A DNA stretch of 64,000 nt from Octopus vulgaris (lineage: Eukaryota), in assembly GCA_951406725.2 (NCBI GenBank), contig OX597831.1, positions 79,794,001 to 79,858,000 on the forward strand. Direction: 5' to 3'. This document shows positions 4,561-58,894 of the stretch, piece by piece. Position 1 is the stretch's first letter. The number at the start of each line of letters is the position of its first letter. The translations under genes were made by a program, and so were the position numbers. The notes below the pieces were generated by a model, which worked only from the letters and a program-made list of their open reading frames with translations, ran no database searches and had not been told where the DNA came from.

Positions 4561-4579
4561 CGTTTAATCGGTGTCTGGA

Positions 4580-6361: not shown

Positions 6362-7953
6362 TGTAGCGAGACTCAATAGTCCATTCCCTTTTTTTATTGT
6401 GGGCGGTCCCACACTCTCTCAGCCAATTCCCTAACTTGCGTTAACCCAAAAAACGAATCTAAAAGAGCAAAAAAAAAAAAAATTCTACCTTAGAGGGGAT
6501 TTAAAATTAACAGCAAGGCGGGTGCTTTTCGAAAAAAGCAGAAGTCTAATCCGGGTTTTAATTTATTTATAATTTTCGGTTCCTATCGAGGCGCGGCCCC
6601 CAAACCTTGCCACCTCCTCAAAAAAAAAAAAAAAATTTTGAGGGGCATCCTGCACACCAGCCTCTCGGTCCTCTAAAAAAAAAAAAAAATTGAGGACTTC
6701 ATCGAGGTGGATTTATGTGCAGGATCCGATAGGAACACTCAGGGTCAAATCCGATATTTGAGCCATTGGTATTACCTGCAGTGTAAATGGCTCTATACAA
6801 CTGCCGGGAACGTTGATATCGGCCCAACGTGGTTGGGCAACACGCTCGGCCTGGCTTGGAGGCCCCGCTCTTAACCCACAAGCCACCATCTTATACGGCC
6901 CCTGGCAACCGTGTGTTTTATACCTTATAGTTTAAAGGATTTAGACTTGGCGGCATTTTCCAAGAGTACGTGGAGGAAAATCAAGAATACAAGAGTAAGG
7001 AATCAAGCCCTGTAGAACGTATGCCAACATCCTTCCTAGCCAACCGAAATCCGCACACCATGCCAAACACCCGGCAACAGCCCGTGAAGGGCTCCATACT
7101 GACAGTTTACCTGTCAGCGGATTAGCTCCATGTAGTGAGACAGAAAGTGAGTCCGCTCACGCGATAAATTTTGCGAGCCACAACAATCTGTTCTGGAGAC
7201 AGCAATCCAGAGCTACCCAGGGACAGTAGCCTTCACGAGGCGCTAACTTGTAGGCGAGATAAGGGGCAGGATGCAAGCACCCCATCCCCACCTCACCCCG
7301 TCAGCAGCCCAAACCGGACAGCGAAACCAGCCGTTCTGACCTTAACCGTCCGAGGGCGCCGCCCCGTGAAATTCTTTATAGAAATGGGGGGGCCTTCACA
7401 CAAAACCGAAGCCAGGTAGTGGCCGATCCGGATGAACAGGAGGCCGACAAGCGTAGCCACGACCAACCAACAGGGCATCATCCCACTCTGTAAACGAAAA
7501 TTCTCCACACTGCTTGGTCCCCACCAAATAATTGGCACCGCTATGGGGAAAGGACACTTTTAGTTTGTCCGCGGAAGGGTTGGTACCAGCAATAGCCAAT
7601 AATGGCTTGCATCCCACCCGCAGACGTAAGCTCTTAAACCACGACAAGGTAGTGTCCCCGTGGGTGAAGCCTGGCAGTGCATCCATCTTGATGGTGCATC
7701 CACCCTCTCGCCTCGCTGCCAATGTTCCAATCGGACACTGCAGGTGTGTATCCCCCTATACACCACCCACACCGGTGTTCCTATCGGACACCGCAGGTGC
7801 CCCTCCGACTGAACCTTTCTGCCTCCAACGAAACTCGGTGGGGTGGGGACAAATCGTATCAAATCGGGTTTTAGCAAGTTCACCCCAAGTAGATGAGCAG
7901 TAGGAACAACCACCCATTGCAAGGTTCGTGGGTCATAACCATCAAGCCATCAA
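6362..7953 (-). mobile_element. Non-autonomous internally deleted R2 derivative (SIDE-like), copy B
   Basis: Tandem paralogue of 4731-6361 with the same internal breakpoint (~6744); small deletion near 7686; ccatcaag duplicated at its 5' junction. Confidence 0.85.
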
Positions 7954-7957
7954 GCTA

Positions 7958-10900
7958 TCTAAATTCTCTACTCGAGGCTTCCCTGTTTTATAGTGGGTGG
8001 TCCCACTATCTTACAGCCGGTACCCTTTTCCCCCATTTTAAAAGAAGAATAGTGACGAAAAAAAAGGATTAGTAAAAACAAAACCAAATTCAATATTCTC
8101 CTCGCAAGGCAGGGCTTAGTCATGTCCGGTGTTATTTTTGTAAAGTATTTTCTAAGTTGGACTCAACCCCACCGAAGCTAGGCTTTACCCGCCTAGCTAC
8201 CCCTCGCAGTAAAATAAAGTAAGCTCAAAAAAAAAAAAAAAAAAAAACACTGCAGGGTCACCAACAAACCTGCCTCTCAGTCAAAAAAAAAACAAAAAAT
8301 TTGGACTTCACTGAGGGGGTGTTATGTTGGGGTCGGTGAGGAAATAGGCTTATATGTGAGGGCTAATCCCTCAACATATTGTAAGTGCAGATTAAAGAAG
8401 TCCGGCTGAGAAGTCGTTGAAATGACTCCTCTTTTATGCCCAAGGCATCTCGTGCAAGACTCGCTGGCCTGCACCAGGCCCCACAGGCACCGATTGGGAG
8501 TCCATGCACCTCCACCGGCCAGTCAAACTCCTGCAACAGCAATTGTTCAAGTGGACGGTATTTGCGCATTTTCTCGAGGGCAGCCCCTTTCAAGGCGTCC
8601 CCCTGCTCCAATCTGATAGTCACATCAACGACAACCACCTTTACCGGACGACTAAAGACCAGGTCAGGTATCAGCCTAGAGCCGTTTATAATATAAGACG
8701 GCTCTACACTGACGCTCCAACCATGGTCTACAGCTTCCTTAGTCACCAGGTCACAAATTTTGTTGTGCCTGGCAAGTCGTGGCCCTTTAAGAGCACCACA
8801 GACTCCACTGACGTGAGATATTGTCTCTGCACCTAATCTACATCTCGGACACGTTGAGTCACCACGGAGTCCACGTGTCAGAGTTTCACGGGTAGGGTAA
8901 ACGTTAGAGCGCATCTTGAGTAAACTCAAGAAGCATCTCTCCGTTAACCTACCCGGCTTACTTATCCAACTATTGCCTATAGCATCCCCACGATAGGCCG
9001 CCGCACACATTCCCTGCACCGGCTGGGCCGCCCATCGATGGGAGTGCGCCAGCCGGATGTCAGGGTCGTAATTGGCCGCGTCCGCAGGAAGTAACGGCAG
9101 GTCGAAGGAAACTATAAGTTGTTGGTTCTGTTCGGCTAATCCTGCAGAATCCGCAACCTTTCTAACAGACACATAATCAGACGTTAATAGGCGAAGGTTA
9201 CGGCGAATAACTGATTTCGGTATTAGCTTCACCAATTGGTGAAGACTTAATCCTCCATCTCGCCGGCTGCTATATAGGAAGGTAGAGTAGGGGAGATGTA
9301 GCATCCTCTTGGCCCCCACACGGATGGCCGTGTCAAGCATCTCTGACGTCCCTCTCGACGGCAGAGCCTGCACCAGACCATAGAACAGTCTGGGCAGGTA
9401 ATAGCTCTGCAGCAAGAGGAACTTTTGTCGGGGTTTCAGCGGAGCCCTGCACATTTTATCAATGTCCAGTGACACCTGCTCCACTGAATTTAAGTTTGAC
9501 TCCCGACTAGAGATAGAAGTCCACGTAGGGATATTAACACCAAGATATGATACCTTATCTCCCGGCTCTACCTTTTTAATAGCGATCCCATTGATCATCG
9601 GCGGGGTGCCATCATTGACAAGGTAGGACTTGCCCCAGCCGCGAATGGAGAACCACGCACACTTACCCACATTAAGCCCCAGTCCAACCGCGCTATAGAA
9701 CTCCTGGCATCTATCCATAAGAGCCTGGAGCCCCTCGCGCGATTTCGCAACTAGGGCCATGTCGTCCGCGTACGCGATTCCATCCACTCGGATCCCCTCA
9801 ACAAGCAAGTCCCCACGGCAGGATAACACATCTAGCAGTGGGTCCGTTGCAATGTTAAAGAGGATCGGCGAGAGCGCGTCCCCCTGTCTAACACCTCGAC
9901 GAATCATAATAGGTTCGCTTAACTGCCCATCGACTGAGAATCTGGTAGTACTACCTTCGTAGATCCCCTCCACGAGCGCTAAAACGTGTTCGTGGAATCC
10001 AAGCCTCCGCAGTCCCGCATACACAAGCGAGTGCGAGACACTGTCGAAAGCCTTGGAGAGATCTAAGAAGGCAACCTCGAGCCGCGGTATTCTCAGTCGT
10101 GCTGGCCTCCCCATCGCGCGAGTGACGAGTTGTCGTAGGAGAAAAGAGTTCTCACTACATCCGTCCGCGCAAATAAAGCCACGTTGACTTTGATTTAGGG
10201 AGTTACCTGAAGCATGCGTTTGGCGACCATCTTTGAAAATAAACGATATACCGCAGAACATATCGTGATTGGCCGCCAATTCGCAAGATCGTATGGGTCG
10301 TCTGATTTCTTCGGTATCAAAATCGACTTCCCTCGCTTCAGGATCTCGGGTACTTTACCCGCCAGCAACATGCAGTTGCATATATTGGTTAAAACAGCTG
10401 GGTCCATTGCTTTGATTTCACCTATTGTGATACCATCTGGACCCGCCGCTGAGGAGATCTTCATTTGCTTCCTACTTACCTTAATCTCCTCCACGGAGAA
10501 CGGACTCAAGATAGTCGTTCTCAACCTGGGAGGAGGAAGGGTATTTCTTCAGATCTACCTCAGGGCCTGGAGCGGAAAGCCTGTTCTTATAAAATTCCTC
10601 TATAGCATAGATTGGAATAGGGCATTCCCGCTTCCTGTTTTCACCTAACACAACTGCAAGGAGCTTCTTCCTATTTTTCCTAAATAAATCCTGATGTCGG
10701 GCATAAGCTTGACGCTTATCCCGACGCCTAGAGCTAGATTTGTATAGATTGGAGGTATGTCTATCACTATCTAAATTTCTCCTGTTGTTGGTAACTTCCC
10801 TACGCGATTTATAGTGCTCCACCCAGTCCTCTATAGCATTCTCAAATGAGCCCCAAGCAATCGCTGTCCCGTCTTCCACGAGTTCCAACAGGGCCTCGGA

Positions 10901-13293
10901 GAAGACTGCAGACCAGCAGGTGTGCCCGGGGCTTGCAGAACCGGGGAAGAGATCCCTCCAGTCAGAACTAGACTGGGGTTCTCGCCCGATTTGTGATTGG
11001 GAATTGGTAGTGGTAGTGGACTGTTCTGACCCTTGATGACTCTTGTGAGCCCTTTTGGCCAGAACCGCCCTTTTCGACCCCACCTGTTTAGCTGTTTTAC
11101 CAGGTAGGAATCGTGCAATGGCTGCATTGATTTGCTTAACCCCTGTCTTCATCAGTTCAAACTCCTTTTTGACGAGGACCGCTACTTCCTCGTCGGACCA
11201 ACAGCCCCTGCGTCTTTGGCCAATTGCCTCAGCAGCGGCTGCCCGATCTGCACGTTTCTTTGCTATTTCTTCAAGGCGAGCAGCAATCCTGCGGGCATTC
11301 GCCACAACAGGATGCTTATGCCAAACGTGCTGTGATCGACCTATAGCCGTCAAAAAAGAACGGCTACAGTGGTCACACTTAAAAGAGGCTGGAACCGGAC
11401 TAGGGGCAAGTGCTCTAAATGCACTGCCATCACATCTACCAGCGTGACACCTCAGAGAGTGTAGGTGACCGCTTTCCCTATCACACTTAATGCATCTGTA
11501 GACAGGTCTAATACCATGTCTACAGATAACATGTTCTCCCCAATCCTGGGGGAGGAGAAGCGCAGAGGACATAGCGGGCAGGCTATGGAGCAAGACGCGC
11601 AGGGAATAGTAAGTGAGAATTCTCTACCACTAGGAGTGGGGCTTCATACCCCCACTTCCTCCTCTCGATCCATTTCTAAATAAAGAGAATGGTTGGGGAG
11701 GTCCCTAGCATCGCCCTCTCTGTCCGTCTCTAACGAAAACCGGACTTCAATGATGGGGTCATGTGCTAGGTCCAGTGGGAGTTGTTCTCCTCTTACTATC
11801 AGGGAATGTTCTCTATATTTTAAACTAAATATGTCTTTCCTATTTCTATAGTACTTCAGTGTCGGACGCAAAAAGAGCGCCCGACACTGGTCATGTTGAA
11901 GCCTAATGAGCCACTTGTACTTACTCGCACCGGAGATGACTCGTTGTCCCGTGCAAGGGAGGGTAGTCTTTCGGCCAACCGCATTTGGTTTGTGCGGTCG
12001 GCCTGACGTGTGGGCCCCATCTCGGACTCACAGGCCACCAGTTTGGCGGCGCCTGGCTGCCGTGTGTTTCTAAAATTATTGTTAGACATCACTATTCTTG
12101 GCGGCATTTTACTAGGGAACCTAGCCGAAACGATAAAGTTGAACTTAAAGGAAGTGCAACGCCAACCCCACCAAGATCGGCAAGCTACGCCACTAACCTA
12201 ACCAAAGAATCCTAACGGCCGCCCAACCGAATCAAGAGACAGAAAGCAAGTAGCCACCCCTCCGAGAACTAATTCCCCCAGAGAACATCCGGGGGACCTG
12301 TCTGGGCTAGACGGGACCCGTGAGTGTATCTACCCCAAAGCTAAAGCGGTGGACAAGAAGGAGCCACCTTATGATAAGTCCTACGATATATCCAATTACG
12401 GAAACCTCAACCGGCGAGTGAGGCGATAAAACACGCTCTAGGCTAATATAGAAGATACGGCTATATCCCACCCGTCACAACAACCGGCTAGAACATTAAC
12501 ACCAATAAGGCGCCAATCTCTATGGCATTCACCCCCATAATGGAAGCAAACGAGAGGGCCTTCACTCCACACTGCTACGAGGCTACAGCCCGACTATACG
12601 AGCCGGACAGTCCCCCATCTACAGCCCGTGAAGGGCTCTATTCCCTAACACCGCAACTGGGTACTTAACTCACAGGCCCCTCGACACCGGCACGGGAAAA
12701 ACTGGCGATCCATATAACTGAACCAACCAGAACCCCCGGCTCCTATCTGCACCAGACCACTATTCATTGGCTCCATAGAGCCATGACCTTCATCACTTTG
12801 AGAGGAGAACCGCCCACCAACTGACCAAAAATAACAGCAAGCTAACCGGGTCATTAAAGACCAAATAGGGAAACTAAGGCACGGCCAGCGGCCGCTCAAC
12901 CTAACCAGCAGGGAGGCACGCACCCCCCTATCAGAATCGCCTATGAACCACTAGCTCCCCACCAAATTAAATTTGGAACCGCTTTGGAGAAAGGACACGT
13001 TTAGTTTGTCCAATGCGGGGTTATTATCCGGCATTGCATAAAGCACATCCGGCATCGACCCCTGCATGGACGTAAGCTCTCTTACCACGCCAAAGTAGTG
13101 TCCAAAAGGGTGAAGCCTGGCAGTGCATCTACCTGGCAGTGCATTTGCCTGGCAGTGCATCTACCTGGCAGTGCATCCACCTGCCGAGTAAAAAACAATG
13201 AGCAAAGCCCACTGAATCCCGACAGGTCATAACATACCAGGCCTACGTGTTAATGCATCCACCTCAAAAGAGGTCATAAGAAACAGGCCCCAC
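7958..13293 (-). mobile_element. R2 retrotransposon copy 1 (full length, disabled)
   Basis: 3' end ...gagaatttaga followed by TAGC of the target; ZF-ZF-ZF-Myb-RT-CCHC-RLE ORF; 5' end GTGGGGCCTG. Confidence 0.95.
8363..12107 (-). pseudogene. R2 ORF (3 zinc fingers, Myb, RT, CCHC, restriction-like endonuclease), frameshifted
   Basis: CPLC..H..H, CIKC..H..C, CDHC..H..H, WSDEE Myb, LDLSKAFD, QGDALSP, YADD, CPRC..H..C, RHN, PDLV..D..EK.RKY; split across ORFs 11856..12107, 11644..11871, 10481..11593, 10195..10524, 8363..10279. Confidence 0.95.
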
Positions 13294-13300
13294 AAGAGTG
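12993..13300 (-). ncRNA. Predicted HDV-like ribozyme, R2 copy 1
   Basis: Same P2/P3/L3/P4/J4-2 elements as 18336-18611; four units of the 16-mer at 13116-13183. Confidence 0.7.
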
Positions 13301-13348
13301 AAGCAGGCCCCACAAGAGAGGAAACAGGCCCCACAAGAGAGGAAACTA
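13281..13348. repeat. Head-to-tail R2 junction with ~21-bp unit (gaaacaggccccacaagagag) x3
   Basis: Reiterated R2 5' terminus plus CTCTCTT; cta at 13346-13348 is TAG from the target. Confidence 0.9.
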
Positions 13349-13607
13349 TTTAATTCTCTTCTCGAGACTTCCCTATTTTATAGTGGGTGGTCCCACTGTC
13401 TCAATAGCCAGTACCCTTTCCCCCTTTTTAAAAGAAGAATAGTGACGAAAAAAACAAAATGTTAGTAAGAAACTAAATTCAAAATTCTCCTCACAAGGAC
13501 GGGCGTAGTCATGTCCGGTGTTCTTTTTAATGAAAGTATTTTCTCAGTAGCACTCAACCCCACCGAAGCTAGGCTTTACCCGCCTAGCTACCCCTCGCAG
13601 TAAAAGT

Positions 13608-13639
<32 letters not shown>

Positions 13640-16600
13640 GACTTTTGGACTTCACTGAGGGGGTGTTATGTGGGGTCGGTGAGGGAATAGGCTTATATGT
13701 GAGGGCTAATCCCTCAACATATTGTAAGTGCAGATTAAAGAAGTCCGGCTGAGAAGTCGTTGAAATGACTCATCTTTTATGCCCAAGGCATCTAGTGCAA
13801 GACTCGCTGGCCTGCACCAGGCCCCACAGGCACCGATTGGGGGTCCATGCACCTCCACCGGACAGTCAAACTCCTGCAACAGCAATTGTTCAAGTGGACG
13901 GTACTTGCGCATTTTCTCGAGGGCAGCCCCTTTCAAGGCGTCCCCCTGCTCCAATCTGATAGTCACATCAACGACAACCACCTTTTCCGGACGACTAAAG
14001 ACCAGGTCAGGTATCAGCCCAGAGCCGTTTATAATATAAGACGGCTCTACACTGACGCTCCAACCATGGTCTACAGCTTCCTTTGCCACCAGGTCACAAA
14101 TTTTGTTATGCCTGGCAAGTCGTGGCCCTTTAAGAGCACCACAGACTCCACTGACGTGAGATATTGTCTCTGCTCCTAATCTACATCTCGGACACGTTGA
14201 GTCACCACGGAGTCCACGTGTCAGTTTCACGGGTAGGATAGACGTTAGAGCGCATCTTGAGTAAACTCAAGAAGCATCTCTCCGTTATCCTACCCGGCCT
14301 ACTTATCCAACTATTGCCAATCACATCCCCACGGTAGGCCGCCGCACACATTCCCTGCACCGGCTAGGCCGCCCATCGATGGGAGTGCGCCAGCCGGATG
14401 TCAGGGTCGTATTTGGCCGCGTCCGCAGGAAGTAACGGCAAGTCGAAGGAAACTATCAGTTGTTGGTTCTGTTCGGCTAATCCTGCAGAATCCGCAACCA
14501 TTCTAACAGAGACATAATCAGACGTTAATAGGCGAAGGTTACGGCGAATAACTGATTTCGGTATTAGCTTCACCAATTGGTGAAGACTTAATCCTCCATC
14601 TCGCCGGCTGCTATATAGGAAGGTAGAGTAGGGGAGATGTAGCATCCTCTTGGCCCCCACACGGATGGCCGTGTCAAGCATCTCTGACGTCCCTCTCGCC
14701 GGCAAAGCCTGCACCAGACCATAGAACAGTCTGGGCAGGTAATAGCTCTGCAGCAAGAGGAACTTTTGTCGGGGTTTCAGCGGAGCCCTGCACATTTTAT
14801 CTATGTCCAGTGACACCTGCTCCACTGAATTTAAGTTTGACTCCCGACTAGAGATAGACGTCCACGTGGGGATATTAACACCAAGATATGAAACCTTATC
14901 TCCCGGCTCTACCTTTTTAATAGCGATCACATTGATCATCGGCGGGGTGCCATCATTGACAAGGTAGGACTTGCCCCAGCCGCGAATGGAGAACCACGCA
15001 CACTTACCGACATTAAGCCCCAGTCCAACCGCACTATAGAACTCCTGGCATCTATCCATAAGAGCCTGGAGCCCCTCGCGCGATTTCGCATCTAGGGCCA
15101 TGTCGTCCGCGTACGCGATTCCATCCACTCGGATCCCCTCAACAAGCAAGTCCCCACAGCAGGATAACACATCTAGCAGCGGGTCCGTTGCAATGTTAAA
15201 GAGGATCGGCGAGAGCGCGTCCCCCTGTCTAACACCTCGACGAATCTCAATAGGTTCGCTTAACTGCCCATCTACTGAGAACCTGGTAGTACTACCTTCG
15301 TAAATCCCCTCCACGAGCACTAAAACGTGTTCGTGGAATCCAAGCCTCCGCAGTCCCGCATACACAAGCGAGTGCGAGACACTGTCGAAAGCCTTGGAGA
15401 GATCTAAGAAGGCAACCTCGAGCCGCGGTATTCTCAGTCGTGCTGGCCTCCCCATCGCGCGAGTGACGAGTTGTCGTAGGAGAAAAGAGTTCTCACTACA
15501 TCCGTCCGCGCAAATAAAGCCACGTTGACTTTGATTTAGGGGAGTTACCTGAAGCATGCGTTTGGCGACCATCTTTGAAAATAAACGATATACCGCAGAA
15601 CATATCGTGATTGGCCGCCAATTCGCAAGATCGTATGGGTCGTCTGATTTCTTCGGTATCAAAATCGACTTCCCTCGTTTCAGGATCTCGGGCACTTTAC
15701 CCGCCAGCAACATGCAGTTGCATATATTGGTTAAAACAGCTGGGTCCATTGCTTTGATTTCACCTATTGTGATACCATCTGGACCCGCCGCTGAGGAGAT
15801 CTTCATTTGCTTCCTACTTACCTTAATCTCCTCCACGGAGAATGGACTCAAGATAGTCGTTCTCAATCTGGGAGGAGGAGGGATAGTTTCTCAGATCAAC
15901 CTCAGGGCCTGGAGCGGAAAGCCTGTTCTTATAGAATTCCTCTATTGCATAGATTGGAATAGGGCATTCCCGCTCGCTATTTTCACCTAACACAACTGCA
16001 AGGAGCTTCTTCCTATTTTTCTTAAATAAATCTTGATGTCGGGCATAAGCTTGACGCTTATCCCGACGCCTAGAGCTAGATTTGTATAGATTGGAGGTAT
16101 GTCTATCACTATCTATATTCCTCTTGTTGTTGGTAACTTCCCTACGCGATTTATAGTGCTCCACCCAGTCCTCTATAGCATTCTCAAATGAGCCCCAAGC
16201 AATCGCTGTCCCGTCTTCCACGAGTTCCAACAGGGCCTCGGAGAAGACTGCAGACCAGCGGGTGTGCCCGGGGCATGCAGAACCGGGGAAGAGATCCACC
16301 CAGTCAGAACTAGACTGGGGTTCTCCCCCGATTTGTGATTGGGAATTGGTAGTGGTAGTGGACTGTTCTGACCCTTGATGACTCTTGTGAGCCCTTTTGG
16401 CCAGAACCGCCCTTTTCGACCCCACCTGTTTAGCTGTTTTACCAGGTAGGAATCGTGCAATGGCTGCATTGATTTGCTTAACCCCTGTCTTCATCAGTTC
16501 AAACTCCTTTTTGACGAGGACCGCTACTTCCTCGTCGGACCAACAGCCCCTGCGTCTTTGGCCAATTGCCTCAGCAGCGGCTGCCCGATCTGCACGTTTC

Positions 16601-18602
16601 TTTGCTATTTCTTCAAGGCGAGCAGCAATCCTGCGGGCATTCGCCACAACAGGATGCTTATGCCGAACGTGCTGTGATCGACCTATAGCCGTCAAAAAGA
16701 ACGGCTACAGTGGTCACACTTAAAAGAGGCTGGAACCGGACTAGGGGCAAGTGCTCTAAATGCACTGCCATCACATCTACCAGCGTGACACCTCAGAGAG
16801 TGTAGGTGACCGCTTTCCCTATCACACTTAATGCATCTGTAGACAGGTCTAATACCATGTCCACAGATAACATGTTCTCCCCAATCCTGGGGGGAGGAGA
16901 AGCGCAGAGGACATAGCGGGCAGGCTATGGAGCAAGACGCGCAGGGGATAGTAAGTGAGAATTCTCTACCACTAGGAGTGGGGCTTCATACCCCCACTTC
17001 CTCCTCTCGATCCATTTCTAAATAAAGAGAATGGTTGGGGAGGTCCCTAGCATCGCCCTCTCTGTCCGTCTCTAACGAAAACCGGACTTCATCGATGGGG
17101 TCATGTGCTAGGTCCAGTGGGAGTTGTTCTCCTCTTACTATCAGGGAATGTTCTCTATATTTTAAACTAAATATGTCTTTCCTATTTCTATAGTACTTCA
17201 GTGTCGGACGCAAAAAAGAGCGCCCGACACTGGTCATGTTGAAGCCTAATGAGCCACTTGTACTTACTCGCACCGGAGATGACTCGTTGTCCCGTGCAAG
17301 GCAGGGTAGTCTTTCGGCCAACCGCATTTGGTTTGTGCGGTCGGCCTGACGTGTGGGCCCCATCTCGGACTCACAGGCCACCAGTTTGGCGGCGCCTGGC
17401 TGCCGTGTGTTTCTAAAATTATTGTTAGACATCACTATTCTTGGCGGCATTTTACTAGGGAACCTAGCCGAAACGATAAAGTTGAACTTAAAGGAAGTGC
17501 AACGCCAACCCCACCAAGATCGGCAAGCTACGCCACTAACCTAACCAAAGAATCCTAACGGCCGCCCAACCGAATCAAGAGACAGAAAGCAAGTAGCCAC
17601 CCCTCCGAGAACTAATTCCCCCAGAAGATATCCGGGGGACCAGTCTAGGCTAGACGGGACCCGTGAGTGTATCTACCCCAGACCTAAAGCGGTGAACAAG
17701 AAAGAGCCACCTTATGATAAGTCCTACGATATATCCAATTACGGAAACCTCAACCGGCGAGTGAGGCGATAAAACACGCTCTAGGCTAATATAGAAGATA
17801 CGGCTATATCCCACCCGTCACAACAACCGGCTAGAACATTAACACCAATAAGGCGCCCATCTCTATGGCATTCACCCCCATAATGGAAGCAAACGAGAGG
17901 GCCTTCACTCCACACTGCTACGAGGCTACAACCCGACTATACGAGCCGGACAGTCCCCCATCTACAGCCCGTGAAGGGCTCTATTCCCTAACACCGCAAC
18001 TTGGTACCTAACTCACAGGCCCCTCGACACCGGCACGGGAAAAACTGGCGATCCATATAACTGAACCAACCAGAACCCCCGGCCCCTATCTGCACCAGAC
18101 CACTATTCATTGGCTCCATAGAGCCATGACCTTCATCCCTTTGAGAGGAGAACCGCCCACCAACTGACCAAAAATAACAGCAAGCTAACCGGGTCATTAA
18201 AGACCAAATAGGGAAACTAAGGCACGGCCAGCGGCCGCTCAACCTAACCAGCAGGGAGGCACGCACCCCCCTATCAGAATCGCCTATGAACCACTAGCTC
18301 CCCACCAAATTAAATTTGGAACCGCTTTGGAGAAAGGACACGTTTAGTTTGTCCAATGCGGGCTTATTATCCGGCATTGCATAAAGCACATCCGGCATCG
18401 ACCCCGCATGGACGTAAGCTCTCTTACCACGCCAAGGTAGTGTCCAAAAGGGTGAAGCCTGGCAGTGCATCCACCTGCCGAGTAAAAAACAGTGAGCAAA
18501 GCCCACTGAATCCCGACAGGTCCTAACATACCAGGTCATAACGTACCAGGCCTACCTGTTAATGCATCCACCTCAAAAGAGGTCATAAGAAACAGGCCCC
18601 AC
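13349..18602 (-). mobile_element. R2 retrotransposon copy 2 (full length, disabled)
   Basis: Colinear with copy 1; 5' end abuts sequence resembling the upstream half of the 28S target. Confidence 0.95.
13706..17450 (-). pseudogene. R2 ORF with stops (TGA 16986, TAG 14364) and frameshifts
   Basis: ORF pieces 16986..17450, 15823..16695, 14364..15866, 13706..14230 carry the same domains. Confidence 0.95.
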
Positions 18603-18611
18603 AAGAGAGTC
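18336..18611 (-). ncRNA. Predicted HDV-like self-cleaving ribozyme, R2 copy 2
   Basis: RNA sense: P1 GACTCTCTT/AAGAGAGCT (G-U at position 1), J1/2 closed by GTGGGGCCTG/CAGGCTTCAC, P2 GGACAC/GTGTCC, P3 ACC/GGT, L3 TTGGCGT, P4 GTCCATGCGGG/CCCGCATTGGAC, J4/2 AAACTAAAC. R2 5' HDV-like ribozymes are established. Confidence 0.8.
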
Positions 18612-18853
18612 GAAGTTACTCCCGCCGTTTACCCGCGCTCTCTTTGGAACTTCTTCACTTTGACATTCGGGGCAGCGGGGCAGAAATCGCACTCTTTCTC
18701 CCCGGCGCCGAATCACTCGGCGCACTCTTGCTCGATACCGAGAACTTCAAGCCCGTACCCTCGGCTCTGCTTTCGCTACACAGTAGATAGGGACAGTGGG
18801 AATCTCGCCTTTGATCCGTTCAGGCGGCGCCTCACCAATCAGACGACGATGCC
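18603..18853 (-). pseudogene. Diverged, order-permuted copy of the 28S rRNA R2 target region
   Basis: 18603-18692 resembles 28S upstream of the site (aagagagtcgaagttactcccgccgtttacccgcgc); 18693-18853 resembles 28S downstream of the site, with many substitutions relative to 20672-20790. Confidence 0.85.
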
Positions 18854-19294
18854 GAGAACTCGTCGCTTCGACAACACACACTCGTGGTGTTCGTCGATAA
18901 CGCCGCGTACTACTCAGACTTTGTCCGCCGCACCACGAGACCGGGGCTCGCGCTCGTTGCCGACAACTCGTCGGCGGTTCGGAAATTTACGTACACTCCG
19001 ACTGCCACATGCTAACGCAGCCACCCTGTGTACGCGCGCACTAAGCAGGAGGTGCCGTTTCCTCCACTTCTCACTTAAACGAACCGGCAACGGAGCGCGC
19101 GCTGCTAAGTCCATGCGCGCTCGATTCGGAGACGAAGACGGTTACGGCGACGACTACCGCGCGCTGAGTCGTTCGCCGCCGCCGCCGCCGCAAACACACT
19201 TCGTCGATCAGCGCGATCGTAACAACTCGCCGCCCTTCGATCGCGCTGTAACAGTTTGCCATCTTTCGCACCGCTTCCGCCTCGAAGGGGGCGG
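18854..19294 (-). other. Probable rDNA 3' ETS / intergenic spacer
   Basis: GC-rich sequence directly beyond the 28S 3' end on the minus strand. Confidence 0.5.
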
Positions 19295-19982
19295 ATTGTG
19301 TCGTTAACGAGAAGAGACTCAATAGATCGCAGTGTGGTAGCTGCTCTACTGAGCACGTCACTCCGAACGGCAAGTCGAGTCGTATGCAAGCGATCCCTTT
19401 CGTCTCGATCTCTTCGAACTAGACGGGGCGGGACGACGAGCAGACGACGACGGCGCGAACGCCCCGGCCGCCGCCGCGTCCCCGAATGGCAATTCCGCCG
19501 GCGATGCTGCCGCTCGCCGCGTGTACGCGACGGCCGGACGGCGAACGCCGAGCTAAGGCGTGCGCCTTGAGGTTGAGACGCTTTTGGAAAACAACTCGGG
19601 TCCGGCTACGGTTCCGGCTGAGAGGCGTTCAGCCGTTATCGCTCAGGGGCAGCCTGGCACCACCGCTCTATCGAGCGAGTGCGCAAACCGTTGCTCTGAT
19701 CCCGCGGTTCCTCTCGTACTGGACGGGATAGCCGTAGCCGAGTTGACGTTGCCGACGCCCGCCTAAGGTCGGCCGGAGAAACGCCGACGGCACGGCCAGG
19801 ACGGACGACGCGCGAGCGCGCCGCCGCCTCGACTGCACGCCGAGTACCCCGACGCGACTCGGGGCGCCGCGTACGCGCGATGCATCGGTAGGATAAAACT
19901 AACCTGTCTCACGACGGTCTGAACCCAGCTCACGTTCCCTGTTAGTGGGTGAACAATCCGACGCTTTGCGAATTCTGCTTCG

Positions 19983-20020
<38 letters not shown>

Positions 20021-20046
20021 GATGTCGCTGCGAACGCTTGGCCGCT

Positions 20047-20086
<40 letters not shown>

Positions 20087-20690
20087 CGGCGGACGCAAAG
20101 CTCGCCGCTGTAATTCGGAAAGGATCGATGGGCCACGCTTTCGCGGTCCGTATTCGTACTGAAAATCGAGATCGAGCGAGCTTTTGCCCTTTTGCTCGAC
20201 GTGTGGTGTCCGTCCACGCTGAGCTCGCCTTGGGACACCTGCGTTACCGTTTGACAGACGTACCGCCCAAGTCAAACTCCCCGACCGACACTGTTCTCGA
20301 CTAAGGGTCGCGCATCGGCTGCGCCGGCGCCCGCAAAAGCGCCCGACATGCACCGCGCGCTTCGCACCAGATAATGAACCACCGCTCGGCGACGGCCCGC
20401 TCCCTTCGCCATCGAGTGAGAGAGGAAACTACGGAAGTGGCGGTTTTTCATCGTCAGAAACGCGCGCGACACCCCGACGTCGAACGCGCTTAGCCGACGG
20501 CGCCCACGGCGCACCGACGAGACCGACGCTGCGCGAGGCGACGACGAACCCTCGAACAGCGCGCCGCCGGTAACGGCAGCGCCCGGCGCGGGGCATCGCG
20601 AGTGCTACCGCCTATGCTACGCCTACCGTGTGCCCTCACAAAACCGGACTAGGGTCAAGCTCAACAGGGTCTTCTTTCCCCGCCGATCCG

Positions 20691-20725
<35 letters not shown>

Positions 20726-20760
20726 CAGTAGATAGGGACAGTGGGAATCTCGCTGATCCG

Positions 20761-20800
<40 letters not shown>
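19295..20800 (-). rRNA. 28S rRNA 3' portion, from the R2 insertion site to the 3' end
   Basis: catttggcta (reverse of TAGCCAAATG) at 20791-20800; peptidyl-transferase region 19885-20085; sarcin-ricin loop cggttcctctcgtact ~19704-19720; 3'-terminal caatagatcgcag ~19320. Confidence 0.95.
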
Positions 20801-23800
20801 TGTAATTTCTCTTTCTTGAGAATTGAATTCCCTTTATTTTGAGTGGGCGGTCCCACTGTTAGCTGAGCCTGTACCCTTCTCCCCCATTTTAAAAAAGAAT
20901 AGTGACGAAATTCTTTATTAGTAAAAGAGAAAATTAAATACACTATTGTTCCTCACGAGGTAGGGCTTTGAGTCAAGTCCGGTGTTATTTTTAATGTTTT
21001 TCTAAGTTGGACTCAACCCCACCTAAGCTAGGCCTTAAAGCCTTGCTACCCCTCGCAGTAAAAGTAAAGTAAAAAAAAAAAATTGACTTCACTGAGGGGG
21101 TGTTATGTTGGGGTCGGTGAGGAAATAGGCTTATTATGTGAGGGCTAATCCCTCAACATATTATAAGTATAAATTAATGTAGTCCGGCTGAGAAGTCGTT
21201 GAAATGACTCATCTTTTATGCCCAAGGCATCTAGTGCAAGACTCGCTGGTAGGTACCACACGCACCGATTGGGAGTCCATGTACCTCTACCGGCCAGTTA
21301 AACTCCTGCAACTGCAATTGTTCAAGTGGACGGTACTTGCGCATTTTCTCGAGGGCAACCTCTTTCAAGGCGTCCCCCTGCTCAAATCTGATAGTCACAT
21401 CAACGACAACCACCTTTTCCGGACGACTAAAGACCAGGTCTGGTATCAACCTAGAGCCGTTTATAATATAAGACGGCTCTACACTGACGCTCCAACCATG
21501 GTCTACAGCTTCCTTAGCCACCAGGTCACATATTTTGTTGTGCCTGGCGAGTCGTGGCCCTTTAAGAGCACCACAGACTCCACTGACGTGAGATATTGTC
21601 TCTGCTCCTAATCTACACCTCGGACACGTTGAGTCACCACGGAGTCCACGTGTCAGAGTTTCACGGGTAGGGTAAACGTTGGAGCGCATCTACCCGGCCT
21701 ACTGATCCAACTATTGCCTATAGCATCCCCACGGTAAGCCGCCGCACACACTCCCTGCACCGGCTGGGCCGCCCATCGATGGGAGTGCACCAGCCGGATG
21801 TCAGGGTCGTATTTGGCCGCGTCCGCAGGAAGTAACGGGAAGTCGAAGGAAGCTATTAGTTGCTGGTTCTGTTCGGCTAATCCTGCAGAATCCGCAACCT
21901 TTCTCACTGAGACATATTCTGACATTAATAGGCGAAGGTTACGGCGAATGACTGACTTTGGTATTAGTCTCACCAATTGGTGAAGACTTAACCCTCCGCC
22001 TCGCCGGCTACTATGAAGGAAGGAAGATGAGGTAGAGTAGGGGAGATGAAGCATTCTTTTAGACCCCACGCGGATGGCCGTGTCAAGCCTCTCTAATATC
22101 CCCCTTGACGGCAAAGACTGCACCAGACCGTAAAAGAATCTAGGCAGGTAGTATCGTTGAAGCAAGAGGAATTTTTGTCGGGGTTTCAGCGGAGCACTGC
22201 ACATTTTATCAATGTCCAGTGACACCTGCTCCACTGAATTTAAGTCAAACTCCCGACTAGAGATTGAAGTCCACGTAGGGATGCCAACACCAAGATATAA
22301 TACCTTATCCCCTGGTTCTACCTTTTTGATAGTGATCCCATTAATCATCGGCGGGGTGCCATCATTGACGAGGTAGGACTTGCCCCAGCCGCGATGGAGA
22401 ACCACGCACATTTACCGATATTAAGCCCCAGTCCAACCGCGCTATAGAACTCCTGGCATCTATCCATAAGCGCCTGGAGCCCCTCACGCGATTTCGCAAC
22501 TAGGGCCATGTCGTCTGCGTACGCGATTCCATCCACACGGATCCCCTCAACATGCAAGTCCCCACAGCCGGATAACATATCTAGCAGTGGGTCCGTTGCA
22601 ATGTTAAAGAGGATCGGCGAGAGCGCATCCCCCTGTCTAACACCTCGACGAATCTCAATAGGTTCACTTAGTTGCCCATCGACTGAGAATCTGGTAGTGC
22701 TACCTTCGTAGATCCCCTCCACGAGCACTAAAACGTGTTCGTGGAACCCAAGTCTCCGCAGTCCCGCATACACCAATGAGTGCGAGACTGTGTCGAAGGC
22801 CTTGGAGAGATCCAAGAAGGCAACCTCCAGCCGCGGTATTCTCAGCCGTGCTGGCCTCCCCATCGCGCGAGTGACGAGCTGTCGCAGGAGAAATGAATTT
22901 TCACTGCAGCCGTCCGCGCGAATAAAGCCACGTTGACTTGGATTTAGGGGAGTTACCTGAAGCATGCGTTTGGCGACCATCTTCGAAAATAAACGATACA
23001 CCGCAGAGCATATCGTGATTGGCCGCCAATTTGCAAGATCGTATGGGTCGTCTGATTTCTTCGGTATCAAAATCGACTTCCCTCGCTTCAGGATCTCGGG
23101 CACTTTACCCGCCAGCAACATGCAGTTGCATATATTGGTTAAAACAGCTGGGTCCATTGCTTTGATTTCACCTATTGTGATACCATCTGGAACCGCCGCT
23201 GAGGAGATCTTCATTTGCTTCCTACTTACCTTAATCTCCTCCACGGAGAATGGACTCAAGATAGAGTCGTTCTCAACCTGGGAGGAGGAAGGGTATTTCT
23301 TCAGATCTACCTCAGGGCCTGGAGCGGAAAGCCTGCCCTTATAAAATTCCTCTATAGCATAGATTGGAATAGGGTATTCCCGCTCCCTGTTTTCACCTAA
23401 CACCACTGCAAGGAGCTTCTTCCTATTTTTCCTAAATAAATCCTGATGTCGGGCATAAGCTTGACGCTTATCCCGACGCCTAGGCCTAAAGTTACTCGTG
23501 TTTGGTATATTTCTATCTCTAGCTAAATTTCTCCTGTTGTTGGTAACTTCCCTACGCGATTTATAGTGCTCCACCCAGTCCTCTATAGCATTCTCAAATG
23601 AGCCCCAAGCAATCGCTGTCCCGTCCTCCACGAGTTCCAACAGGGCCTCGGAGAAGACTGCAGACCAGCGGGTGTGCCCGGGGCATGCAGAACCGGGGAA
23701 GAGATCCTTCCAGTCAGAACTAGACTGGGGTTCTCCCCCGATTAGTGATTGGGAATTAGTAGTGGTAGTGGACTGTTCTGACCCTTGATGACTCTTGTGA

Positions 23801-26106
23801 GCCCTTTTGGCCAGAACCGCCCTTTTCGACCCCACCTGTTTAGCTGTTTTATCAGGTAGGAATCGTGCAATGGCTGCATTGATTTGCTTAACCCCTGTCT
23901 TCATCAGTTCAAACTCCTTTTCGACGAGGACCGCTACTTCCTCGTCAGACCAACAGCCCCTGCGTCTTTGGCCAGTTGCCTCCGCAGTGGCTGCCCGATC
24001 TGCACGTTTCTTTGCTATTTCTTCCAGGCGAGCAGCAATCCTGCGGGCATTCGCCACAACAGGATGCTTATGCCAAATGTGCTGTGATCGACCTATAGCC
24101 GTCAAAAAAGAACGGCTACAGTGGTCACACTTAAAAGAGGCTGGAACCGGACTAGGGGCAAGTGCTCTAAATACACTGCCATCACATCTACCAGCGTGAC
24201 ACCTCAGAGAGTGTAGGTGACCGCTTTCCCTATCACACTTAATGCATCTGTAGACAGGTCTAATACCATGTCTACAGATAACATGTTCTCCCCAATCCTG
24301 GGGGGGGGGGGGGGTAGAAGCGCAGAGGACATAGCGGGCAGGCTATGGAGCAAGACGCGCAGGGAATAGTAACTGAGAATTCTCTACCACTAGGAGTGGG
24401 GCTTGATACCCCCACTTCCTCCTCTCGATCCATTTCTAAATAAAGAGAATGGTTGGGGAGGTCCCTAGCATCGCCCTCTCTGCCCGTCTCTAACGAAAAC
24501 CGGACTTCATCGATGGGGTCATGTGCTAGGTCCAGTGGGAGTTGTTCTCCTCTTACTATCAGGGAATGTTCTCTATATTTTAAACTAAATATACCTTTCC
24601 TATTACTATAATACTTCAGTGTCGGACGCAAAAAGAGCGCCCGACACTGGTCGTGTCAAAGCCTATTGAGCCACTTATACTTACTCGCACCGGAGATGAC
24701 TCATTGTCCCGTGCAAGGGAGGGTAATCTTTCGGCCAATTGCAACTGGTTAGTACAGTCGGCCTGACGTGTGGGCCCCATCCGGACTCACAGGCCACCAG
24801 CTTGGCGGCGCCTGGCTGCCGTGTGTTTCTAAAATTATTGTTAGATCATCACTATTCTTGGCGGCATTTTACTAGGGAACCTAGCCAAAACGATAAAGTT
24901 AAACTTAAAGGAAGTGCAAAGCCAACCCCACCAAGATCGGCAAGCTAACGCCACTAACCTAACCAAAGAAACCCTAACGGCCGCTCAACCAAGAATAAAG
25001 AGACAGAAGCAAGTAGCCACCCCTCCGAGAACTAATTCCCCCAGAGAACATCCGGGGGACCTGTCTAGGCTAGACGGGACCCGTGAGTGTATCTACCCCA
25101 GACCTAAAGCGGTGGACAAGAAAGAGCCACCTTATGATAAGTCCTACGATATATCCTTTTACAGGAAACCTCAACCGGCGTGTGAGGCGATAAAACACGC
25201 TCTAGGTTAATATAGAAGATACGGCTATATCCCTCCCTTCACAACAACCGGCTAGAACATTAACACCAATAAGGCGCCCATCTCTAGGGCATTTCACCCC
25301 CATAATGGAAGCAAACGAGAGGGTCTTCACTCTACACTGCTAAGAGGCCACAGCCCGACTATATAGAGCCGGACAGTCCCCATCTACAGCCCATGAAGGG
25401 CTCCAATCCTCCCTAACACCGCAAATGGGTACCTATCTCACAGGCCCCTCGACACCGGCACGGGAAAATCCCGGCGATCCATATAACTGAACCAACCAGA
25501 ACCCCCGGCCCCTAACTGCACCAGATTTCCATTCATTGGCTCCATAGAGCCATGAGCTTCATCCCTATGAGAGGAGAACCGCACACCAAATGACCAAAAA
25601 CATAAGCTAGCTAACCGGGTCTTAAGAGACCAAATGGGGAAACTAAAGCACGGCCAGCAGCCGCTCAACCTAACCAGTAGGGGGGCACGCACCTCCCTAT
25701 CAGAATCACCTAGGAACCACGAGCTCCCCACCAAATTAAATTTGGAACCGCTTTGGAGAAAGGACACGTTTAGTTTGTCCAATGCGGGGTTATTATCCGG
25801 CATTGCATAAAGCACATCCGGCATCGACCCCGCATGGACGTAAGCTCTCTTACCACGCCAAGGTAGTGTCCAAAAGGGTGGAGCCTGGCAGTGCATCTAC
25901 CTGGCAGTGCATCTACCTGGCAGTGCATCTACCTGGCAGTGCATCCACCTGCCGAGTAAAAAACAATGAGCAAAGCCCACTGAATCCCGACAGGTCATAA
26001 CATACCAGGTCATAACATACCAGGTCATAACATACCAGGTCATAACATACCAGGCCTACGTGTTAATGCATCCACCTCAAAAGAGGTCATAAGAAACAGG
26101 CCCCAC
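20801..26106 (-). mobile_element. R2 retrotransposon copy 3 (full length, disabled) with precise 3' junction at the canonical 28S site
   Basis: ...gagaaattaca|TAGCCAAATGCCTCGTCATC; more diverged UTRs than copies 1, 2 and 4. Confidence 0.95.
21145..24867 (-). pseudogene. R2 ORF with frameshifts and small deletions
   Basis: ORF pieces 24272..24631, 22345..24105 (ZF3-Myb-RT continuous), 21653..22411, 21231..21689. Confidence 0.95.
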
Positions 26107-26113
26107 AAGAGTG
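25762..26113 (-). ncRNA. Predicted HDV-like ribozyme, R2 copy 3, with expanded J1/2
   Basis: Core as in copy 2; 16-mer x4 at 25884-25951 and 15-mer x4 at 25991-26054. Confidence 0.7.
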
Positions 26114-26161
26114 AAGCAGGCCCCACAAGAGAGGAAACAGGCCCCACAAGAGAGGAAACTA
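26094..26161. repeat. Head-to-tail R2 junction identical to 13281-13348
   Basis: Same triplicated unit including the aagagtgaagcagg variant. Confidence 0.92.
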
Positions 26162-29100
26162 TTTAATTCTCTTCTCGAGACTTCCCTATTTTATAGTGGG
26201 TGGTCCCACTGTCTCAATAGCCAGTACCCTTTCCCCCTTTTTAAAAGAAGAATAGTGACGAAAAAAACAAAATGTTAGTAAGAAACTAAATTCAAAATTC
26301 TCCTCACAAGGACGGGCGTAGTCATGTCCGGTGTTCTTTTTAATGAAAGTATTTTCTCAGTAGCACTCAACCCCACCGAAGCTAGGCTTTACCCGCCTAG
26401 CTACCCCTCGCAGTAAAAGTAAAGTAAAAAAAAAAAAAAAAAAAAAAAGACTTTTGGACTTCACTGAGGGGGTGTTATGTGGGGTCGGTGAGGGAATAGG
26501 CTTATATGTGAGGGCTAATCCCTCAACATATTGTAAGTGCAGATTAAAGAAGTCCGGCTGAGAAGTCGTTGAAATGACTCATCTTTTATGCCCAAGGCAT
26601 CTAGTGCAAGACTCGCTGGCCTGCACCAGGCCCCACAGGCACCGATTGGGGGTCCATGCACCTCCACCGGACAGTCAAACTCCTGCAACAGCAATTGTTC
26701 AAGTGGACGGTACTTGCGCATTTTCTCGAGGGCAGCCCCTTTCAAGGCGTCCCCCTGCTCCAATCTGATAGTCACATCAACGACAACCACCTTTTCCGGA
26801 CGACTAAAGACCAGGTCTGGTATCAGCCCAGAGCCGTTTATTATATAAGACGGCTCTACACTGACGCTCCAACCATGGTCTACAGCTTCCTTTGCCACCA
26901 GGTCACAAATTTTGTTATGCCTGGCGAGTCGTGGCCCTTTAAGAGCACCACAGACTCCACTGACGTGAGAAATGGTCTTTGCTCCTAATCTACATCTCGG
27001 ACACGTGGAGTCACCACGGAGTCCACGTGTCAGAGTTTCACGGGTAGGATAGACGTTAGAGCGCATCTTGAGTAAACTCAAGAAGCATCTCTCCGTTATC
27101 CTACCCGGCCTACTTATCCAACTATTGCCAATCACATCCCCACGGTAGGCCGCCGCACACATTCCCTGCACCGGCTAGGCCGCCCATCGATGGGAGTGCG
27201 CCAGCCGGATGTCAGGGTCGTAATTGGCCGCGTCCGCAGGAAGTAACGGCAGGTCGAAGGAAACTATAAGTTGTTGGTTCTGTTCGGCTAATCCTGCAGA
27301 ATCCGCAACCTTTCTAACTGAGACATAATCGGACGTTAATAGGCGAAGGTTACGGCGAATAACTGATTTTGGTATTAGCTTCACCAATTGGTGAAGACTT
27401 AATCCTCCATCTCGCCGGCTGCTATATAGGAAGGTAGAGTAGGGGAGATGTAGCATCCTCTTGGCCCCCACACGGATGGCCGTGTCAAGCATCTCTGACG
27501 TCCCTCTCGCCGGCAAAGCCTGCACCAGACCATAGAACAGTCTGGGCAGGTAATAGCTCTGCAGCAAGAGGAACTTTTGTCGGGGTTTCAGCGGAGCCCT
27601 GCACATTTTATCAATGTCCAGTGACACCTGCTCCACTGAATTTAAGTTTGACTCCCGACTAGAGATAGAAGTCCACGTAGGGATATTAACACCAAGATAT
27701 GATACCTTATCTCCCGGCTCTACCTTTTTGATAGCGATCCCATTAATCATCGGCGGGGTGCTATCATTGACGAGGTAGGACTTGCCCCAGCCGCGAATGG
27801 AGAACCACGCACACTTACCGACATTAAGCCCCAGTCCAACCGCACTATAGAACTCCTGGCATCTATCCATAAGAGCCTGGAGCCCCTCGCGCGATTTCGC
27901 AACTAGGGCCATGTCGTCCGCGTACGCGATTCCATCCATTCGGATCCCCTCAACATGCAAGTCACCACAGCCGGATAACACATCAAGCAGTGGGTCCGTT
28001 GCAATGTTAAAGAGGATCGGCGAGAGCGCGTCCCCCTGTCTAACACCTCGACGAATCTCAATAGGTTCTCTTAACTGCCCATCTACTGAGAATCTGGTAG
28101 TACTACCTTCGTAAATCCCCTCCACGAGCACTAAAACGTGTTCGTGGAATCCAAGCCTCCGCAGTCCCGCATACACAAGCGAGTGCGAGACACTGTCGAA
28201 AGCCTTGGAGAGATCTAAGAAGGCAACCTCGAGCCGCGGTATTCTCAGTCGTGCTGGCCTCCCCATCGCGCGAGTGACGAGTTGTCGTAGGAGAAAAGAG
28301 TTCTCACTACATCCGTCCGCGCAAATAAAGCCACGTTGACTTTGATTTAGGGGAGTTACCTGAAGCATGCGTTTGGCGACCATCTTTGAAAATAAACGAT
28401 ATACCGCAGAACATATCGTGATTGGCCGCCAATTCGCAAGATCGTATGGGTCGTCTGATTTCTTCGGTATCAAAATCGACTTCCCTCGCTTCAGGATCTC
28501 GGGTACTTTACCCGCCAGCAACATGCAGTTGCATATATTGGTTAAAACAGCTGGGTCCATTGCTTTGATTTCACCTATTGTGATACCATCTGGACCCGCC
28601 GCTGAGGAGATCTTCATTTGCTTCCTACTTACCTTAATCTCCTCCACGGAGAATGGACTCAAGATAGTCGTTCTCAACCTGGGAGGAGGAGGGGTAGTTT
28701 TTCAGATCTACCTCAGGGCCTGGAGCGGAAAGCCTGTTCTTATAGAATTCCTCTATTGAAAAGATTGGAATAGGGCATTCTCGCTCCCTGTTTTCACCTA
28801 ACACAACTGCAAGGAGCTTCTTCCTATTTTTCCTAAATAAATCATGATGTCGGGCATAAGCTTGACGCTTATCCCGACGCCTAGAGCTAGATTTGTATAG
28901 ATTGGAGGTATGTCTATCACTATCTATATTCCTCTTGTTGTTGGTAACTTCCCTACGCGATATATAGTGCTCCACCCAGTCCTCTATAGCATTCTCTATA
29001 GCCCCAAGCAATCGCTGTCCCGTCTTCTCAAATGAGCCCCAAGCAATCGCTGTCCCGTTCCAACAGGGCCTCGGAGAAGACTGCAGACCAGCGGGTGTGC

Positions 29101-31409: not shown

Positions 31410-31418
31410 AAGAGAGTC
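31143..31418 (-). ncRNA. Predicted HDV-like ribozyme, R2 copy 4
   Basis: Same fold as 18336-18611, including the GACTCTCTT P1 strand. Confidence 0.78.
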
Positions 31419-31495
31419 GAAGTTACTCCCGCCGTTTACCCGCGCTCTCTTTGGAACTTCTTCACTTTGACATTCGGGGCAGCGGGGCAGAAATC
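31410..31495 (-). pseudogene. Diverged 28S upstream-of-target fragment (identical to 18603-18688)
   Basis: aagagagtcgaagttactcccgccg...gcggggcagaaatc. Confidence 0.88.
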
Positions 31496-58870: not shown

Positions 58871-58894
58871 CTTAAAAAGTATCTCTAAGGTGCA

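Follow-up and report, generated by a model that had tools for sequence, protein, structure and literature searches.

A diverged copy of the R2 target region among spacer-type repeats in Octopus vulgaris rDNA and its possible use as a secondary landing site

A rearranged rDNA region crowded with R2 elements

The window, a stretch of 64,000 nucleotides of the Octopus vulgaris genome (contig OX597831.1, positions 79,794,001 to 79,858,000), is a rearranged rDNA region in which Rfam places the 3' part of a 28S gene, ending at 19293, and the 3' end of an 18S gene at 33422-33243, both on the minus strand. The 28S part, called T1 below (Table 1), contains one Octopus bimaculoides 28S primer from the supplement of PMC13321053 exactly and a second with one mismatch, as aligned by eye. 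The helix 88 break motif of T1 (20099-20092, minus strand) is one base off the motif described in PMC13321053 as perfectly conserved among incirrates, a difference that probably arose in a dead copy.

Self-comparison of the window identified four full-length elements of 5.3 kb, arranged as two head-to-tail pairs (c1 with c2, and c3 with c4). In frames that are broken, the long elements code for a reverse transcriptase (Pfam RVT_1, E 2.8e-29). Among the 120 matches listed for the reverse-transcriptase frame, the one of highest identity, 71% across 22% of the query, is a protein of O. bimaculoides; with the primer matches, it marks the host as an incirrate octopod. Read by eye, the frames hold an N-terminal zinc finger and Myb motif and a C-terminal CCHC motif and restriction-like endonuclease; Pfam gave no match on the two frames in which these motifs were read. 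We assign the long elements to R2 because they encode RVT_1 and because two of the five long 3' ends, those of c3 and c6, lie exactly at the canonical 28S nick site. The other three run into another element after 3-4 target-like nucleotides: at 7957-7955, 13348-13346 and 26161-26159 (minus strand), the within-stack R2 3' ends give way to the opening 3-4 nt of the canonical target.

Two shorter elements combine an R2 ribozyme and an R2-like 3' end with no coding region, their longest sense stop-free frame being 129 aa, and are 86% alike in self-comparison. They resemble the R2 SIDEs of Drosophila (PMC3414825), which are likewise short, carry a ribozyme and an R2-like 3' end, lack a long frame and are stacked at the target, but at 1.6 kb they exceed R2Dwi_SIDE (529 bp), and their flanks are diverged rather than canonical 28S. 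The 1.6-kb elements would be mobilised by the R2 protein.

Several further pieces lie in the window. At 33860-32798 (minus strand), the 18S 3' end and ITS1 run almost straight into the start of a 28S gene, with no Rfam match to 5.8S, and this 28S start is fused to the internal R2 fragment p5; a candidate role for p5 as the 5' part of c3 was rejected, as the two are 13% apart. A more distant R2-family copy at 49896-51904 (minus strand) is 66-75% identical to c1-c4 and shows no 28S flank at its 5' end. Two copies of what is apparently another LINE family, 78% alike, lie at 3083-4550 and 34268-36106 (minus strand), the first ending the rDNA-derived DNA at 4550 and the second standing upstream of the 18S piece. 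Blocks of 0.7-0.8 kb with 95-98% identity are repeated between 1-2095 and 37240-41206, a sign of recent local duplication. The 28S piece behind c6 (45209-45439, plus strand) differs from T1 at 11 of 201 sites; within its first 120 nt, several states are like the Sepiola flank and the Rfam consensus, and the later part matches O. sinensis (by eye), so that it is possibly an older rDNA variant.

Table 1. Features of the window discussed in the text, in order of position.
Feature	Position	Strand	Basis or description
Spacer-type flank of D'	4551..4664	-	Related to 18975-18853; 0/300 shuffles
D', second diverged downstream block	4665..4726	-	Begins 36 nt beyond the canonical nick; flanks the stack downstream
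SIDE-like A	4733..6361	-	Short non-autonomous element; 3' end uncertain, 4733 to 4727
SIDE-like B	6362..7954	-	Short non-autonomous element; ribozyme region and 3' end in common with R2
R2 copy c1	7958..13345	-	Second in the stack; self-comparison
R2 copy c2	13349..18602	-	Frameshifted; first in the stack behind U; self-comparison and frames
Predicted HDV-like ribozyme of c2	18330..18609	-	5' strand of P1 is the last 7 nt of U (18609-18603)
U, diverged 28S upstream of the R2 site	18603..18688	-	8 substitutions and 3 inserted nt relative to cephalopod 28S
RUM (R2 upstream binding motif, -34 to -22)	18620..18632	-	Unchanged inside U; defined in Bombyx R2 (PMC10499050), not in this lineage
Linker	18689..18747	-	Shuffle test
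D, diverged 28S downstream of the R2 site	18748..18852	-	About +10 to +108; 10 substitutions and 6 inserted nt relative to T1
Spacer-type DNA	18853..19292	-	440 bp, GC- and CpG-rich, degenerate subrepeats; no rRNA match; CpG o/e 1.6-1.75
T1, 3' half of 28S rDNA	19293..20800	-	Starts at the canonical R2 nick site; R2-inserted unit; Rfam LSU_rRNA_eukarya
R2 dimer, c4 (26162-31409) and c3 (20801-26158)	20801..31409	-	Internal junction as between c2 and c1
Second copy of U	31410..31495	-	86/86 nt identical; directly before the 5' end of c4; abuts p5 at a 3-nt microhomology
R2 fragment p5	31496..32798	-	Self-comparison
R2 copy c6	41209..45208	+	5'-truncated; self-comparison

Diverged target blocks among spacer-type subrepeats

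Read on the minus strand, the 28S 3' end at 19293 is followed by 440 bp of non-28S DNA, the diverged block D from downstream of the R2 site, a 59-bp linker, the diverged block U from upstream of the site, and the 5' end of c2 at 18602, an order that had been drawn in a preliminary description of this DNA and was borne out by Rfam, alignments and shuffles. U corresponds to positions 2193-2275 of the Rfam LSU model (56.1 bits, E 3.7e-13), in helices 68-69. D aligns to the gene copy at 20791-20693 with 83.8% identity and a score of 140, reached by none of 300 shuffles (maximum 29); its six inserted nucleotides fall in three places. The 28S homology totals ~190 nt (86 + 105), less than the ~250 bp around the R2 site that had been estimated, and the 13 nt at the R2 site itself are absent; the stretch 18960-18853, which had been counted into the cassette, is spacer-type DNA. 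The linker is probably a spacer subrepeat copy rather than a continuation of the 28S, as judged from alignment: its score against 18975-18853 was reached by 1 of 300 shuffles, and its score against the 28S continuation by 51 of 300, so we reject the latter assignment.

Some 14 kb from D lies its counterpart D'. The two regions align over 62 nt at 91.9% and a further 23 nt at 95.7% (4726-4636), none of 300 shuffles reaching the score of the flank alignment. They share private changes, including all three motifs named in the preliminary description, and both lie against the same spacer motifs. The proposal that D is a repeat in its own right therefore stands, D and D' forming a small repeat family, as does the proposal that the blocks lie among spacer-type subrepeats. 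A 19-nt repeat, whose length was chosen after the repeats had been seen, occurs at 18955-18973, 18847-18865 and 18733-18751, with a best pair of 17/19 (0/300 shuffles), and copies of this spacer motif bracket D at a spacing of 108 and 114 bp; a test of a 14-nt repeat was not significant (18/300 shuffles). In the one unit available, D and U lie past the 28S 3' end in spacer DNA that is repeated within itself.

Other assignments in and around the cassette were tried and rejected. The stretch 18975-18853 is neither a decayed U (95/300 shuffles) nor alike to the rest of the spacer (203/300). A 265-aa plus-strand frame over the cassette was set aside as a gene, having no Pfam match and lying antisense to rRNA-like GC-rich DNA, and CpG content was dropped as a marker of activity for want of a depleted background (0.86 at 53000-60000). 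A small-RNA search around the cassette gave three weak matches only (E 1-1.6), all rejected.

The elements c2, c1, SIDE B and SIDE A form a stack of 13,869 bp that is opened by U and closed by D'. Once this stack is removed, U and D' stand in gene order, so that the permuted order noted earlier is only apparent: an extra D lies upstream of a U...D' pair, and no special mechanism is needed. Because D' is missing the 36 nt that come directly after the nick, and the 4 nt preceding it are not clearly present, the empty site is a reconstruction. Behind the 3' end of c1 stand the opening 4 nt of the canonical target, just as they do behind c6; c1 may therefore have landed in a genuine 28S gene and been brought into the stack by recombination, in which case U and D' may not be the two flanks of one site.

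The second copy of U stands before a dimer whose c4-c3 junction exactly repeats that of c2 and c1. Between c2 and c4, 72 of 5208 sites are different, and between c1 and c3, 325 of 5267; the probability that 86 nt remain identical at the c2/c4 divergence is 0.30. Alignment shows c3 following c1 at its 5' end and then carrying its own differences, a subfamily change, from about alignment column 277-438; this mosaic would mark an exchange inside R2. Since the dimer junction is shared, the two copies of U represent one event and not independent insertions, and the simplest reading is that a single U-R2 event was copied by exchange inside R2, placing U before the canonical T1.

Divergence of the blocks and the features used by R2

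U and D are equally diverged, at about 10% (8 of 83 positions in U, compared by eye with other species, and 10 of 99 in D), which fits one duplication. Compared by eye with the flank of O. sinensis across 83 positions, U has 8 substitutions and 3 inserted nt, or 9 substitutions with the gap placement of Rfam. D carries the T1 state at all five sites where T1 and the gene piece from 45209 differ. All indels in both blocks are insertions.

The substitution spectrum was compared with the singleton changes seen across five R2 copies, for which columns lying 5 positions or less from a gap were left out. C>T and G>A make up 100 of the 291 singletons in R2 but none of the 18 changes in U and D (Fisher p 0.001; for D by itself 0/10, p 0.03), and the ratio of AT>GC to GC>AT is 10:2 in U and D versus 102:124 in R2 (p 0.015; D alone p 0.10, not significant), in counts that are small and, for U, depend on comparison by eye with other species. 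This spectrum is unlike the decay of the neighbouring R2 copies and suits long residence in GC-rich rDNA, where GC-biased conversion within the array is a candidate cause of GC-ward drift. Together with the ~10% divergence, it speaks against the earlier suggestion that the blocks are fresh scars of R2 cleavage and repair. Capture of A-to-I edited rRNA was rejected as a source, A>G making up only 4 of the 10 changes in D and 1 of the 8 in U.

In Bombyx R2, cleavage is decided by a 13-bp motif at -34 to -22 and by the bases from -6 to +1, while +6 to +37 is dispensable (PMC10499050). U is unchanged at -41 to -16 and at -13 to -5, in a numbering that assumes the loss of 4 nt before the nick at the 5' junction. 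With 11 events, the probability of staying unchanged is 0.15 for the 13-bp RUM (not significant), 0.016 for the 26-nt stretch, and 0.048 for RUM plus the P1 strand of the ribozyme described below. Because the presence of R2 itself selects for such sites, the intact motif, as far as sequence can tell, shows competence as an R2 landing site and not selection; the alternative landing site proposed earlier is plausible to this extent, as U keeps the motif that R2 needs. As for the cleavage motif RASIN (-6 to +1) in the reconstructed empty site, positions -6 and -5 are found in U and +1 in D', and -4 to -1 can be assigned to either SIDE A or the target.

Ribozyme cores were sought with the layout of the HDV ribozyme. 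The end of U completes the predicted ribozyme of c2, in which P1, P2, P3/L3 and P4 were recognised by motif and folding: P1 forms 7 of 7 pairs with the end of U and P2 forms 6 of 6, and the fold of 18609-18330 recovers P1 and P4 (z -4.0, 0/200 shuffles). The predicted cut is at -11, 7 nt before the element, and falls inside the range of 9-36 nt upstream reported for R2 5' ribozyme cleavage sites (PMC3774820). The short 5' repeats of c1 and c3 keep just those 7 nt, the P1 strand, without U, and they do fit a target duplication at the R2 5' junction, whereas U, a block of 86 nt at 10% divergence, does not agree with a predicted cut at -11. The SIDE ribozymes expect canonical -9 to -3 instead of the -11 to -5 of R2.

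Across the window, HDV-like cores at 18609-18330, 31416-31140, 7954-7510, 6361-5880 and 51904-51650 (minus strand) carry three different P1' strands. The P1' of the core near 51716 pairs with a sequence absent from its own 5' end, and the c1 ribozyme misses the exact core motif through a change in P3.

Origin of the blocks and comparison with known systems

The reading that we favour, with about as much belief as doubt, takes U, D and D' for an old duplicate of the target region that resides in the spacer and serves R2 as a secondary landing site. The course of events would be as follows:

(i) Some 200 nt of octopod 28S surrounding the R2 site would once have been duplicated into the 3' spacer.

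(ii) The duplicate would have been amplified together with local subrepeats into at least D...U|D'.

(iii) The copies would have drifted by ~10% through GC-ward substitutions and small insertions. The divergence and its spectrum are observed in both blocks, and their cause may be GC-biased conversion.

(iv) U would have kept the R2-binding motif and the 7 nt that complete the predicted R2 ribozyme, both of which are present in it today.

(v) An R2-family element would have inserted at the spacer site.

(vi) Later insertions or recombination would have assembled the stack c2-c1-SIDE B-SIDE A, with U on one side and D' on the other. The stack itself is observed, and its order and route of assembly are presumed.

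(vii) Exchange inside R2 may then have copied U and the dimer before the canonical 28S 3' half, giving rise to the copy ending at 31495, as the shared junction and the mosaic c3 suggest.

The site would be a landing site by opportunity; a selected function is unsupported.

The nearest parallels share some features with the octopus arrangement and differ in others. R2Bm also inserts into target-like sequence that is not part of a 28S gene (Xiong et al. 1988, as cited in PMC10499050 and PMC10257491), and U is similar in offering R2 a non-functional site that keeps the upstream binding motif (PMC10499050). The Bombyx site, however, has limited similarity to 28S, whereas the octopus site is ~200 nt long, 90% identical, repeated, and within 700 bp of the 28S 3' end. 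In Inachis io, R2 insertions are described in rDNA units that are not confined to the 28S gene. Duplications of 28S at R2 5' junctions (PMC3774820) are also comparable, in that upstream 28S is duplicated beside R2 and may diverge, and the P1 strand comes from 28S, but those duplications match the cleavage distance (9-36 nt), whereas U measures 86 nt and is accompanied by downstream blocks in spacer repeats. U thus appears to work like a secondary target site and not to be one of the short junction duplications. Certain fish R2 elements whose 3' UTR holds 28S-like sequence (PMC5035012) likewise place diverged 28S from the target region beside an R2 end. In fish, the 28S-like part belongs to the element, while in octopus D adjoins no element end, D' follows only one of the two SIDEs, and none of the five long R2 3' ends has diverged 28S. 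The octopod families R2-1_OVu, R2-1_OSi, R2-1_ORu and R2-1_ECi (PMC13188248, Table S2) share the nick site and, by eye, the P1' strand with the window copies; their printed upstream flanks, readable in three of the four, are canonical 28S, whereas the full-length copies of the window are preceded by U or by another element.

In searches of the open-licence literature, we found no report of a diverged, repeated R2 target copy in a spacer, and none of four motifs occurs in the full texts of open-licence papers. Exact-pattern scans of metagenome contigs gave 0 loci for the octopod 28S motif and 0 for the U motif. In a sequencing-run index queried with 18603-19290, none of the 15 listed runs (7 studies) held half of the 62 words, the shares being 0.48 in X1, which may be the source sample, 0.21 in X2 and small in the other 13, and no RNA run was listed.

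The cassette is known from one locus, in a dead, rearranged rDNA region, and it could be local debris: U, D and D' would then be pieces of an old drifted rDNA copy or paralogue class, shuffled at the edge of a dead array, and the contact between R2 and spacer would be accidental and unique to the locus. We consider this unlikely, although it is to be taken seriously. Deletion-type joints abound, as in the run from 18S-ITS1 through the 28S start to an R2 fragment, the 3-nt microhomology at 31495, and the mosaic R2; U, c4, c3 and T1 stand in gene order; and 45209-45439 supplies a second odd 28S variant. In U, also, only 1 of 8 substitutions falls at a paired site (P 0.004); this sparing of helix stems favours an rRNA variant that once worked, but it overlaps the R2 motif and D does not share it (4 of 10, P 0.39). 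Against debris, D and D' are flanked by spacer motifs and not by further 28S and have private changes in common 14 kb apart, and neither U nor D shows the C>T or G>A changes of decay.

A second possibility is that U is the captured 5' leader of one R2 subfamily (the c2/c4 type), a 28S duplication that has since diverged as in the Eickbush model, with D a separate spacer repeat. We regard this as improbable. It is favoured by the observation that both copies of U begin at the same base despite different left flanks (linker versus p5) and end at the R2 5' end, which the spacer-duplicate reading leaves unexplained, and it has precedents in the extension of R2 5' ends by target duplications proposed in PMC3774820 and in the 28S-like sequence inside fish R2 3' UTRs (PMC5035012). 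The predicted ribozyme, however, has its cut 7 nt ahead of the element, so that the remainder of U would be lost; c1 and c3 have the 7 nt without U; the dimer junction common to both copies of U leaves no independent insertions; U is like D in divergence and spectrum; and the cleavage sites given in PMC3774820 reach only up to 36 nt upstream.

It had also been suggested that such copies draw insertions away from functional 28S; as selected decoys, they would be kept by the host in most spacers since they absorb R2 insertions. Four elements are indeed stacked behind U, and the binding motif and P1 strand are unchanged against 11 changes elsewhere in U, with the probabilities given above for the 26-nt stretch and for RUM plus P1, but ascertainment would lead one to expect an intact motif. 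R2 also occupies both of the window's canonical downstream sites (2/2), as c3 and c6, with no sign of protection, and we hold selection for a decoy to be very improbable.

That U is simply the true 28S of this species upstream of the site is a reading in which we place next to no belief, and it is largely refuted. It draws on the colinearity of U-c4-c3-T1 with the gene, on a window without any true upstream 28S, and on the fact that U breaks no consensus pair inside helices 68-69. Table S2 of PMC13188248, however, has six cephalopod rows, with flanks readable to the site for Sepia lycidas, O. sinensis, O. rubescens and Eledone cirrhosa, and in all four the helix 69 loop lost in U is canonical; the preliminary description had named a true 28S of this sequence as the outcome that would undo it, and these flanks argue otherwise. 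Among the entries listed in that table, the canonical motif occurs at least 169 times and the variant of U not once. By eye, T1 and the downstream flank of O. sinensis are unlike at 2 positions within the first 150 nt, as against 11 of 86 positions in U. Loop changes in helix 69 are also damaging in E. coli: 1917 U>C strongly inhibits translation (PMC1190176), and by our own position mapping it corresponds to one of the two loop changes of U. From sequence comparison, U is not the true octopod 28S, with a small doubt remaining.

A block order produced by mis-joined reads in a collapsed rDNA region is similarly hard to credit: the near-tandem 10.5-kb duplication (8273-18688 versus 21051-31495, 94.7%), the frameshifted R2 frames and long T runs would invite such an artefact, which could change the order of the blocks but not the existence of diverged ones, yet the duplicated copies differ from each other as counted above, and the divergence of U and D does not look like read error, being directional, rich in substitutions and repeated at two places.

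It is an open question how R2 can last when each of its insertions kills an rRNA gene (PMC13580325), and a natural, repeated target copy in the spacer would permit a direct test of whether insertions can be diverted. U is also a natural mutational scan of the target, whose 11 changes all fall outside the known binding motif. Should the cassette prove unique to this dead locus, it would be only well-dated rDNA debris and a warning that the R2 flanks found in assemblies may not be real 28S. There is, finally, a slim prospect that the cassette is a regular 3' spacer part of octopod rDNA units and a safe harbour shared by host and element, in which case R2 and its SIDEs would have a landing site with binding motif and P1 strand preserved, near enough to the end of the 28S for Pol I read-through, and could multiply there while no 28S gene would be destroyed.
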